Positions 1,384 through 36,877 of a DNA stretch of 38,680 nucleotides are shown here, piece after piece. Location of the stretch: contig LKMN01000005.1 in NCBI GenBank assembly GCA_001563875.1, positions 1 to 38,680 on the forward strand, read 5' to 3'. The notes below the pieces were generated by a model. That model saw nothing but the letters and a program-made list of their open reading frames with translations. It ran no database searches and was not told the DNA's origin. Position 1 is the stretch's first letter. Every line of letters begins with the position of its first letter. This stretch comes from Nanohaloarchaea archaeon B1-Br10_U2g1 (GTDB lineage: Archaea > Nanohalarchaeota > Nanosalinia > Nanosalinales > Nanosalinaceae). The position numbers and the translations under genes are program-made.

Positions 1384-1521
1384 TGGGAAAGCCGGGAATC
1401 GAACCCGGGACCTCTGCGTATCTCACAAAACCTTTATTTAATCATCAAGGTCTCTAAGACCTCTCATAGCTCATAATTCTTTGTTATGAGCGCAGCGCTC
1501 TAACCCCTGAGCTACTTTCCC
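1384..1521 (-). tRNA. tRNA with CAT anticodon (probably elongator Met; Ile2 not excluded), 65-nt intron at 37/38 (1420-1484)
   Basis: Minus strand folds as GGGAAAG/CTTTCCC acceptor stem, GCTC/GAGC D-arm, CTGCG-CT-CAT-A|A-CGCAG anticodon arm and CCGGG-TTCGATT-CCCGG T-arm. Bulge-helix-bulge formed by CTCA/TGAG with TAA and ATA bulges. CCA is not encoded. Confidence 0.93.
1442..1476 (-). ncRNA. Candidate intron-encoded box C'/D' guide for 2'-O-methylation of tRNA C34
   Basis: Order on the minus strand: TTATGAGC (antisense to tRNA nt 31-38), T, ATGA (D-like), a 6-bp hairpin, then TGATGA (C box core). The N+5 position pairs with C34. Confidence 0.6.
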
Positions 1522-2216: not shown

Positions 2217-2290
2217 TGGGTTCGCCCGGATTCGAACCGGGGATCTCCACCATGTCAAGGTGGTGTCATAACCAGCTAGACCACGAACCC
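2217..2290 (-). tRNA. tRNA-Val(GAC)
   Basis: GGGTTCG/CGAACCC acceptor stem, CCACC-TT-GAC-AT-GGTGG anticodon arm, GGTTCGAATCC T-arm. Confidence 0.96.
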
Positions 2291-35175: not shown

Positions 35176-35257
35176 ACAGACTCATTGTTCGGTAAACATG
35201 ATAAACCTCTATAATATCTCTTTAAAACTGAACTAGTCGCAACCATATCACATAGAT

Positions 35258-35596
35258 ATGATAGATCGGGGACAGTATAAGAGAGGAAGGAGAGAAGACC
35301 AGAAAGAGGCTGAAAAAAAGGTTTTGGAGACGCTTGAAAAGTATCATAACCCCTTAGCACTGCCGCCAAGGATCGATGAAGTAATAGATGATATAGACGA
35401 TAAAGAAGTAAAGATTTATCTGGAAACTTACAGAGGTAGATCGGTAACGGTTTCAGAACTTATAAACGAGTTGGATGACTACAGTCCTAAGGAAGAGATA
35501 TACAAAGTTAAAGACGTCTATAACCCTGTTGAAAAGATTTCGGATCTGCTTGAACAACAGGAAGACAGCTTGAGAAGTTATCTTGAAAGATACTAG
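35258..35596 (+). CDS. Hypothetical acidic protein between nop5 and fibrillarin, opposite strand
   Basis: 112-aa ORF with TTTAAA at 35221, about 35 nt upstream. Confidence 0.6.
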   Translation: MIDRGQYKRGRREDQKEAEKKVLETLEKYHNPLALPPRIDEVIDDIDDKEVKIYLETYRGRSVTVSELINELDDYSPKEEIYKVKDVYNPVEKISDLLEQQEDSLRSYLERY

Positions 35597-36357
35597 TTCT
35601 TCAAATCTTCAAACCGTTCAAGACACTCCTGTCGAAGCTCCTCACCTTTTTCCTTATCTCCGTACTGGTCAAGTCTAGCGGCCATAACGGCTTTGTTCGC
35701 CAGGAAACGCGCCATCTTACCTCTCTTACTTTCAGGAAGGCTGTTTATGAAACGGTGTTGGAATATCACGCCGTGTTTAGGAGGTGTGCCCTCGCCGTGA
35801 AGGTAACGGAACAGTGCTTTCTCCGCACCCAGCATCTGGACCGTTGAGGCAGGCTTCTTTGCCAGGTCTTCAAGACTTCCCGCAAGCGCAACAATTCTCG
35901 CTGCAAGAAGAGGGCCTAAAACGGTTGAAAGGTTGGACATTTCCTCCTCTGCAACCTGTTCGATATACTTCTCAAGGTTTTCGCGGTGACTTCTCTTTTT
36001 TTCTATAACGTTTAAAGACTCCTCAAGAACCTCGATATCCTTATCTGTCAAGGTCATCCCTGTTGAAGATTCTGCAAGCTCCTCGAAGCCGGCAACTCTA
36101 TCCCTTTCTACAGTCTTTGAAAGTATTTTTACCAAGTGTTCGTCTTCCGATATCTCTTCCTCAAGCTCGGGGAAGTAAAGCGAGTACCAGTCTCTGAATC
36201 TCTCCATCTCTTTAGAAACATTGTTACCAAGCTCGTCGTACAGATTGACAGCTTTAACCATTAAACGGTCTCTCTCTGCCGACTCTTTAAGTTTCTCCCG
36301 AGCCTGTTTCAACGCTTCGTCTCGTAGATCGTTCACTGGTTTACCACCGGTCGACAT
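35593..36357 (-). CDS. nop5: Nop5 (Nop56/58), short form
   Basis: WY..YFPEL, LAK.PASTVQ.LGAEKALFR, PPKHGVIFQH, RGKMAR.LA and AAR.D. Confidence 0.95.
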   Translation of the reverse strand: MSTGGKPVNDLRDEALKQAREKLKESAERDRLMVKAVNLYDELGNNVSKEMERFRDWYSLYFPELEEEISEDEHLVKILSKTVERDRVAGFEELAESSTGMTLTDKDIEVLEESLNVIEKKRSHRENLEKYIEQVAEEEMSNLSTVLGPLLAARIVALAGSLEDLAKKPASTVQMLGAEKALFRYLHGEGTPPKHGVIFQHRFINSLPESKRGKMARFLANKAVMAARLDQYGDKEKGEELRQECLERFEDLKN

Positions 36358-36778
36358 TTATTCCGAGCATATGCATCTTCAGTTTCACATGTTTTTCGTC
36401 TCTTCCAAGCTCTTCAGCGACTTTCCCAGGATCCATAGACGGGTTTTGAACCATAAACCGTTCCTCCCATCTGGAGAATCCTTTCCAGTCGGTTACGTCC
36501 TCTATCTCTTCTTGGAACTCTGACTCGTTTTTCAGGAACTTCTCGAGATCGCTGTTACTCATCTCCTTCCTGTTACGGGACAGGTACTCCACCTCTCTTG
36601 GATCCCAGGAGAACGGTATTTTGGAGGTCGAGTCGTTCTCAGCTTTCTCGTCCATAGAGTTTCTTTTCTTCCTCATCTCAGGCTTTTCTATCTTCTCTTC
36701 TTCTACGTTAGAAAGCTCTTCGTTAAGAAGCTCTTTTGCCTTGTCGACGAGATAGTCCTCGTACTGTTCCCGGTCCAT
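36341..36778 (-). CDS. Hypothetical protein with two Myb/SANT-like HTH repeats
   Basis: WDPREVEYL..N...MS and FSRWEERFM..N.......VAEELGR....V..K...LG; ATG at 36778. Confidence 0.65.
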   Translation of the reverse strand: MDREQYEDYLVDKAKELLNEELSNVEEEKIEKPEMRKKRNSMDEKAENDSTSKIPFSWDPREVEYLSRNRKEMSNSDLEKFLKNESEFQEEIEDVTDWKGFSRWEERFMVQNPSMDPGKVAEELGRDEKHVKLKMHMLGINVDRW

Positions 36779-36877
36779 AAACATTTGTTTATGGCCTGAA
36801 CCTTTAAACTGTTTCAAGGAAACACTGTGACTCTGTAAATAAATCTTTATGATTTGCCTTTTCGAACACATTTAAAT

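Follow-up and report, generated by a model that had tools for sequence, protein, structure and literature searches.

Can the intron of a transfer RNA (tRNA) gene carry the guide for methylation of the wobble base of its own tRNA? This question is raised by the elongator tRNA-Met(CAU) gene on a stretch of 38,680 nucleotides from Nanohaloarchaea archaeon B1-Br10_U2g1 (assembly GCA_001563875.1, contig LKMN01000005.1, positions 1 to 38,680), which is referred to in its full length as the window. An earlier sequence-only reading of this DNA had proposed that the 65-nt intron of the gene encodes a box C'/D'-type guide aimed at its own C34, a proposal that is now supported by conservation, by covariation, and by a paralogous module in the tRNA-Trp intron of the same genome. 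For these reasons, the intron very probably carries a box C/D-type guide with a single kink-turn (K-turn) for the formation of 2'-O-methylated C34 (Cm34).

Read on the minus strand, the guide UUAUGAGC (DNA TTATGAGC) is the exact reverse complement of the target strand GCUCAUAA (DNA GCTCATAA), as checked by script, the target comprising G31 to A37 and the first intron base, A1484, which is the same base as A38 of mature tRNA-Met. The guide is located inside a canonical 37/38 intron, is complementary to the anticodon exon of its own tRNA, and is separated from the D-type box AUGA by a single nucleotide, U1468. Within the 8-bp duplex, C34 (1488) pairs with G1472, the fifth base upstream of A1467, i.e. 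the N+5 position. The C-stem of the K-turn is a hairpin of 7 bp, including the pair G1463.U1447 and a 6-bp core AGGTCT/AGACCT (1462-1457/1453-1448), followed by the C-type strand GAU-GA-UU. In this register GAU (1446-1444) forms the 3-nt bulge, next to the tandem sheared pairs G1443.A1464 and A1442.G1465, to U1441.U1466 and to U1440-A1467, such that AUGA 1467-1464 and GA 1443-1442 constitute an internal C'/D'-type motif and a predicted L7Ae site. The sequence-only reading had placed guide, ATGA, hairpin, TGATGA (1447-1442) and C34 at N+5 exactly as found by script, and it was right in seeing only one clear C/D pair; its register of the TGATGA core, with the first GA sheared, had to be abandoned, because the hairpin abuts both boxes and relatives with AAUGAUU or UAUGAUC have no first GA.

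The first concern with elements as short as these, including a D-type box off consensus, is chance resemblance in an ordinary tRNA intron. When the intron was shuffled 200,000 times with its composition preserved, the 8-mer turned up in 0.12% of cases and the module ATGAGnnMTGA..RTGAT in 0.019%. The loci of relatives were fetched by BLAST, blind to the motif, across 41 genomes of the same order, which gave 30 loci. Two of these are fragments at contig ends and one is a miscall; the other 27 are intron-bearing tRNA-Met genes (introns of 42-292 nt). Every one of the 27 has (U)U[A/G]UGAGC, then a one-nucleotide spacer, [A/C]UGA, a helix with an insert of between 12 and about 170 nt, and N-R-U-G-A-U-Y, and the spacer that puts C34 at N+5 is invariant (27/27). 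In the order, the check put forward with the proposal, a comparison of CAT-tRNA introns, shows guide, spacing and boxes to be conserved. Of the phylum's 70 genomes, 44 matched a strict pattern, 21 of them among the 28 of high quality, with 0 matches in the reversed control; the module is additionally present in four further genomes, which brings the count to at least 48/70, with all five families represented.

Covariation was followed in the 36 unique sequences of the phylum, with the position of the C-type strand set by a rule chosen in advance. In the C-stem, the three outer pairs are formed in 36, 36 and 35 of them, with 2, 5 and 5 pair types, respectively, as compared with 15-26 of 36 when the partner was slid by one or two columns. 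The first base of the D-type box goes along with the base that follows GAUGAU on the C-type strand, in that 24 sequences combine AUGA with U and 12 combine CUGA with C, concordant in 36/36; one locus of family f3 (L022) has the AUGA/U form amid CUGA/C relatives. In sequences from many lineages, nucleotide 31 was compared with guide position +2, both of which had been left free by the search pattern. Among 143 unique sequences, two of them bacterial, the combinations were A-U (84), G-C (55), G.U (2), U-A (1) and G/G (1); this pairing extends into the anticodon stem, outside the bulge-helix-bulge (BHB) splice motif. A stem of at least 3 bp closing directly onto N-R-U-G-A was found in 112/143 sequences versus 16/143 shuffled ones, and most of the sequences lacking it, e.g. 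those of Hadarchaeota, have a short K-loop-like connector. With the module in 0.019% of shuffles, a reversed control that stayed empty, and both the helix and nucleotide 31 covarying, mere chance is hardly conceivable as an explanation.

The wider scan used one genome per species and gave at least 120 stretches, the taxa of 80 of which were listed. Among the matches listed are many Micrarchaeota, Nanoarchaeota including Nanoarchaeum equitans Kin4-M, several Nanohaloarchaea, Aenigmatarchaeota, Woesearchaeota, Hadarchaeota (non-DPANN), Marsarchaeota and one metagenome-assembled genome of Methanosarcinales. Two deltaproteobacterial matches turned out to be repeats with no tRNA. It had been suspected early on that the intronic guide might be a DPANN trait rather than unique; the layout is indeed shared by N. 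equitans, Micrarchaeota, Aenigmatarchaeota and Woesearchaeota, although its presence in Hadarchaeota shows that it is not confined to DPANN.

Several introns of the phylum hold further elements. In eight of the longer introns of family f1, the K-turn helix is expanded and its loop contains UUCUGGA, with the complement UCCAGAA near the 3' end of the same intron, and the two could form a long-range pairing or pseudoknot; this feature is absent from the short intron of the window. Seven introns of family f3 (126-292 nt) contain a second conserved D-like element (GCGCUGAGAC / CUGCGAC / CUGGGAC), which lies after the C-type strand and is followed by CCAACAAAC; they may represent additional guides directed at different targets. 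In one tRNA-Met gene of family f5 (L204), an apparent second intron of about 15 nt lies between nucleotides 30 and 31, besides the guide intron at 37/38.

The tRNA-Trp gene of the source genome (contig C16 123793-123948, minus strand) provides a paralogue. Its 83-nt intron reads UUUGGAGU-U-AUGA-G, hairpin, GAUGAUUA, with the same boxes and spacer as the tRNA-Met intron, a different helix sequence, and C34 again at N+5. Introns of tRNA-Trp are experimentally established as intron-borne methylation guides (Grosjean 2008, PMC2584109; PMC7994747). A second AUGA in the same intron comes after CGGAU, the complement of A38-G42 in the 3' exon; under the N+5 rule its target would be G42, whereas the Haloferax intron addresses position 39, and a similar element is kept in four relatives. 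When the phylum was scanned with a tRNA-Trp pattern, 23 places were found as against 5 control matches, the pattern being too loose, and five of the loci are real intron-bearing tRNA-Trp genes, all with the module. A scan of the source genome for K-turn hairpins gave 6 matches versus 3 in the reversed control, and only the tRNA-Met and tRNA-Trp introns share GAUGAUUA. From the same scan stems AUGA-hairpin-GAUGAUAC on contig C16 at about 4925 (minus strand), which may be a chance match. A loose regular expression retrieved no other candidate guide for C34 from the assembly, and a strict C-D'-C'-D expression for canonical small RNAs (sRNAs) gave 0 matches in the source genome as well as in its reversed version, a result that does not demonstrate the absence of such sRNAs.

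How the guide relates to splicing follows from the architecture of the intron. Its BHB is canonical, of the textbook archaeal type, and all of its written-out pairs proved to be standard: the central 4-bp helix joins CUCA (C32-A35, 1490-1487) to UGAG, is flanked on either side by the 3-nt bulges U36-A37-A1484 and A1421-U1420-A1419, and helix h' joins CAAA (1483-1480) to UUUG. The 8-mer guide and the BHB helices are different segments of the intron, and the guide is therefore surplus to the needs of splicing. Since the guide-target duplex and the BHB both require C32-A35, they are mutually exclusive; the minimum-free-energy fold pairs the guide with nucleotides 31-38 and retains four pairs of the anticodon stem, and the guide-paired and BHB conformers, as defined, have energies of -41.1 and -41.5 kcal/mol. 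The minimum-free-energy fold also offers an alternative pairing of AGACCUU with AAGGUUU, which is absent in relatives and was treated as chance.

On this basis the following course of events can be proposed. In the precursor, the guide would pair with nucleotides 31-38 of the anticodon arm, which may well occur in cis, the linker permitting a hairpin within the pre-tRNA. L7Ae would bind the K-turn, Nop5 and fibrillarin would assemble on it, and C34, which faces the guide nucleotide five positions from the box, would receive a 2'-O-methyl group to give Cm34. The RNA would then refold to the BHB, and the splicing endonuclease would excise the intron. That methylation should come first is suggested by the use of the same anticodon bases in guide pairing and BHB, and methylation before refolding and splicing has been argued for other archaeal precursors (PMC2584109).

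The same switch between two nearly isoenergetic, mutually exclusive folds would also suit a purely structural or timing role, in which L7Ae binding and masking of the anticodon control folding or splicing and no methyl group is transferred. The Nop5 of this family, which has no fibrillarin-docking domain, would fit such a role, as would the imprecision of a single-site ribonucleoprotein (RNP) in vitro reported in PMC1635284. Masking alone, on the other hand, would not need a one-nucleotide spacer that places C34 at N+5 without exception in all 27 homologues. Moreover, the same geometry recurs in the tRNA-Trp intron, for which methylation is established in other archaea (PMC2584109), the fibrillarin gene has stayed next to nop5 in relatives, and families with an N-terminally extended Nop5 keep the same module. 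A role without methyl transfer is accordingly regarded as quite improbable.

The protein machinery deserves a closer look. It had been pointed out beforehand that fibrillarin, Nop5 and L7Ae are all encoded in the window, and so they are, but this Nop5 is without its N-terminal fibrillarin-binding domain. It consists of coiled-coil and Nop domain only, aligning to residues 115-375 of S. solfataricus Nop5 (3id5_A) and to positions 120-377 of the 417 of NF011121 (aNOP56). The NOP5NT model of Pfam is uninformative in this respect, as its blank on the Nop5 of the window is matched by archaeal controls with 0 hits over the cut-off. The short form is a family trait: Nop5 frames of family f1 have about 248-284 aa (loci L228-L234 among the short ones), as compared with 314-357 aa, including an N-terminal extension, in f3 and f4, and the best 120 database homologues have 246-265 aa, the named ones being Nanohaloarchaea, including Ca. 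Nanohalobium constans. Both kinds of family, f3 and f4 with the extended and f1 with the short Nop5, keep the intron module, and in three relatives (G007, G005, G018) the genes of Nop5 and fibrillarin are only 3-6 nt apart. A working methylation system is still favoured because this adjacency has been kept and because both kinds of family retain the module.

A gap of 418 nt (35176-35592) separates nop5 from the fibrillarin gene in the window, and an acidic open reading frame (ORF) of 112 aa and of no family lies there on the opposite strand (35258-35596). Directly upstream of nop5 is a conserved ORF of about 135-165 aa (147 aa in the window, 36341-36784, minus strand), which overlaps the nop5 start by 17 nt and has homologues in four relatives. 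It has no match in Pfam, NCBIfam or among PDB sequences; its predicted fold is all-helical with a mean predicted local distance difference test score of 68.6 and a confident, helix-turn-helix-like C-terminal part, and Foldseek returned nothing at E <= 0.001. It does not look like a split-off N-terminal domain of Nop5. The features of the locus and of the machinery are compiled in the table.

Table. Features of the tRNA-Met locus and of the guide machinery in the window.
Feature	Positions	Strand	Description and basis
Elongator tRNA-Met(CAU) gene with intron	1384..1521	-	138 nt; mature tRNA 73 nt before CCA; Rfam RF00005, ARAGORN -i
5' exon, nt 1-37	1485..1521	-	Anticodon C34 A35 U36 = 1488-1486; sequence and ARAGORN intron call
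Target strand GCUCAUAA	1484..1491	-	G31-A37 and first intron base A; predicted methylated base C34 = 1488
Intron, 65 nt, canonical 37/38 position	1420..1484	-	ARAGORN; BHB pairs confirmed as standard by script
Guide UUAUGAGC	1469..1476	-	Complement of nt 31-38; checked by script
Box D-type element AUGA	1464..1467	-	Replaced by CUGA in N. equitans and other families of the phylum
K-turn C-stem hairpin GAGGUCU-UAG-AGACCUU	1447..1463	-	7 bp including G1463.U1447; pairs valid by script
Box C-type strand GAU-GA-UU	1440..1446	-	Register inferred from stem abutting both boxes and from relatives
BHB helix h', 3' strand UUUG	1426..1429	-	Pairs with CAAA 1483-1480
BHB central 4-bp helix, 3' strand UGAG	1422..1425	-	Pairs with CUCA = C32-A35 (1490-1487)
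3' exon, nt 38-73	1384..1419	-	Rfam and ARAGORN
L7Ae, open frame 128 aa	20957..21232 (Pfam match)	+	PF01248, 94.7 bits
Fibrillarin, 214 aa	34531..35175	-	PF01269, 227 bits
Nop5, 254 aa	35593..36357	-	PF01798; coiled-coil and Nop domain only

The Rfam tRNA model RF00005 matches the whole length of the tRNA gene with 58.8 bits and a 67-nt insertion 3' of the anticodon, and ARAGORN, with introns allowed, reports tRNA-Met(cat) at c[1384,1521] with i(38,65), i.e. a 65-nt intron at 37/38; in its default run on the window ARAGORN did not detect the gene. For annotation this means that the gene is overlooked by default tRNA finders. The gene codes for the elongator tRNA-Met, neither for the initiator nor for tRNA-Ile2, an identity that follows from three features of the source assembly: the other CAU tRNA looks initiator-like, a tRNA-Ile(UAU) exists, and there is no match to TiaS_FLD. 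On contig C14, the second CAU tRNA shows A1-U72 together with three G-C pairs in its anticodon stem, both of them hallmarks of initiators. The tRNA-Ile(UAU) gene (contig C26 2-130) has a 56-nt intron, and TiaS_FLD was without a match in this assembly of 710 kb and 26 contigs, in which absence of genes is not proven at 96.75% completeness, as compared with matches in 4/4 archaeal control genomes. These findings suggest that AUA is decoded by the UAU tRNA and not by an agmatidine-modified tRNA-Ile2, and the idea that Cm34 might serve to mark tRNA-Met as distinct from agmatidine-bearing tRNA-Ile2 has thereby become moot.

Introns are not restricted to the tRNAs mentioned so far. The vicinity of the tRNA-Met gene to a tRNA-Val(GAC) gene (2217-2290, minus strand, in the window) is conserved in family f1 (loci L002-L020), and in five relatives the tRNA-Val gene is likewise intron-bearing, with 53-111 nt. 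On contig C19 (3482-3982), ARAGORN reports a tRNA-Thr(UGU) with a 426-nt intron, a place where Rfam has no tRNA at the gathering threshold; this intron encloses an ORF of 133 aa that matches the PD-(D/E)XK endonuclease family PDDEXK_5 (E 6.6e-42).

A number of observations weigh against a guide for Cm34 in the tRNA-Met intron. The intron of the window has a single K-turn only: upstream of the guide there is no C-type box, positions 1484-1477 reading ACAAAGAA, and a conserved second D-type box is missing as well. An engineered single-site box C/D RNP was active in vitro but lost its site specificity (Hardin & Batey 2006, PMC1635284), so that precision at N+5 should not be taken for granted. With 8 bp, the duplex of guide and target is short, and the D-type box reads AUGA in place of CUGA. 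According to PMC11213020, it is the N-terminal domain of Nop5 that recruits fibrillarin; this domain, by which fibrillarin is held in solved complexes, is absent from the Nop5 of the window and from its whole family in the phylum. The initiator tRNA (contig C14) holds the identical 8-nt target, and a guide in trans could therefore not tell elongator from initiator by pairing. In two genomes of high completeness, G007 (98%) and G050 (96%), no match was obtained even with a looser pattern; their elongator tRNA-Met was not found either, the 9-base pattern being too noisy and the loci examined holding no CAU tRNA. Finally, the relatives that enter the conservation counts are not independent samples.

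The features of a conventional dual guide were also sought in the intron of the window. There is no terminal K-turn of box C (RUGAUGA) and box D (CUGA) to close the RNA ends, and no spacing of about 12 nt between C and D' and between C' and D, as there is a single K-turn with no partner box on the guide side. The part of the intron 3' of the C-type strand contains no complement to ACGCAG of the 3' exon, i.e. no second guide to position 39. Two candidate boxes were dismissed: GUGA 1426-1423, 12 nt after AUGAUUA, was considered for a second K-turn and belongs to the BHB, its spacing being variable in relatives, and AAAGAA 1482-1477, which might have served as a C box once the intron was circularised, is not kept in relatives.

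Whether the guide would operate within its own precursor or after excision is a separate matter. The excised intron, linear or circularised by ligase, could serve as a guide in trans, with other copies of pre-tRNA-Met or mature tRNAs, perhaps even the initiator, as its targets. In N. equitans, the RNA from the intron is stable and reaches high abundance (Randau 2012, PMC3491384), and in vitro work on pre-tRNA-Trp favoured action in trans, as summarized in PMC2584109 and PMC7994747. Pairing of the guide with the mature tRNA would be just as good, given that A38 equals the first intron base, and the same 8-nt target occurs in the initiator tRNA; by the same token, a trans guide would be unable to separate elongator from initiator, and in the mature tRNA G31 is paired with C39. 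The initiator tRNA of Haloferax is not known to carry Cm34. The covariation of nucleotide 31 and the short linker are compatible with either mode. On balance, action of the excised intron in trans is considered unlikely.

For a guide in cis, a bolder picture may be drawn, which is possible but rather doubtful. The methylation machine of this family would be doubly reduced, to a cis guide with a single K-turn and to a Nop5 devoid of its docking domain; the fold switch would act as a checkpoint that allows splicing only after methylation of C34, and the tRNA body or the BHB would supply the architecture otherwise provided by the second K-turn.

With these findings, Nanohaloarchaeota, in all five sampled families, join the lineages whose elongator tRNA-Met intron holds a probable guide for the wobble base of its own tRNA; this kind of guide is already known but thinly described, and the phylum is new for it. 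The published case of N. equitans becomes one instance of a widespread design that spans DPANN lineages and Hadarchaeota. Among the papers listed in the literature search, a tRNA-Met intron was mentioned only in Randau 2012, and a description of the module in Nanohaloarchaea was given in none. A natural guide with one K-turn offers a route to the role of the second K-turn in site specificity, and to the gating of splicing by methylation. Because cultivated nanohaloarchaea exist, among them lines of Ca. Nanohalobium constans and Ca. Nanohaloarchaeum antarcticus, and Ca. Nanohalobium constans has the same short Nop5, the prediction is testable.

Among the known systems, the closest is the 66-nt tRNA-Met intron of N. 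equitans, which yields an RNA that is both stable and abundant. Its box D conforms to the consensus, its box C deviates at one position, and it contains a hairpin of six GC pairs (Randau 2012, Genome Biol 13:R63, PMC3491384). The sequence-only reading was right to mention an sRNA in this intron. The RNA was described as 'potentially guiding RNA methylation' at a time when only tRNA-Trp introns had been known as hosts; the main text of that paper names no target, the words 'anticodon', 'wobble' and 'C34' having 0 occurrences each (PMC3491384). In the gene (L109), the order is CUAUGAGC-U-CUGA-CCCGAAAGGG-GAUGAUC, followed by the GC hairpin and by GUGAG. Both hosts are elongator tRNA-Met, the introns are at the same position with 65 nt in the window and 66 nt in N. 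equitans, and the parts come in the same order, i.e. guide (CUAUGAGC in N. equitans), one nucleotide, [A/C]UGA, capped helix, N-R-U-G-A (GAUGAU-Y in both) and BHB segment (GUGAG). The two differ in that N. equitans combines CUGA with C after GAUGAU, whereas the window has AUGA and U; the capped helix has 3 bp with a GAAA loop in N. equitans and 7 bp in the window, and in place of the A/U-rich linker of the window, N. equitans has the extra hairpin of six GC pairs. The stability of the N. equitans RNA has been demonstrated (PMC3491384).

The dual guide in euryarchaeal pre-tRNA-Trp, as in Haloferax volcanii and in Pyrococcus sR50, has C/D and C'/D' motifs with targets at 34 and 39 (PMC2584109, PMC7994747). 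Like this guide, the module in the tRNA-Met intron lies within a 37/38 BHB intron and addresses its own C34 by the N+5 rule, and in both cases methylation would have to precede splicing; the tRNA-Trp intron of the source genome even carries a K-turn module identical to that of tRNA-Met. The intron-encoded dual box C/D guide of pre-tRNA-Trp was reportedly described by Clouet d'Orval in 2001. In contrast to it, the tRNA-Met intron of the window has one K-turn and one guide, and the host tRNA is a different one.

The same predicted product, Cm34 of an intron-containing elongator pre-tRNA-Met made by fibrillarin, Nop5 and L7Ae, is ascribed elsewhere to stand-alone RNAs. For archaeal tRNA-Met, Vitali & Kiss 2019 (PMC6601510) refer to Joardar 2011 as the source on Cm34 guided by a box C/D RNA (haloarchaeal sR-tMet), and Pyrococcus sR49 is a stand-alone guide for the same modification (PMC2584109). 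These are separate genes whose products act in trans, whereas the guide of the window is intronic. In Grosjean 2008 (PMC2584109) it was stated that the guide for Cm34 of tRNA-Met is 'always exonic' and that for tRNA-Trp 'always intronic', an older generalization of the always separate sRNA to which an intronic tRNA-Met guide runs counter. With the synthetic 'hemi' box C/D RNP (PMC1635284), finally, the module has in common the combination of one K-turn with one guide. The hemi RNP was engineered, acted in trans and had lost its specificity, whereas the natural module sits within a pre-tRNA, which may supply the missing architecture.

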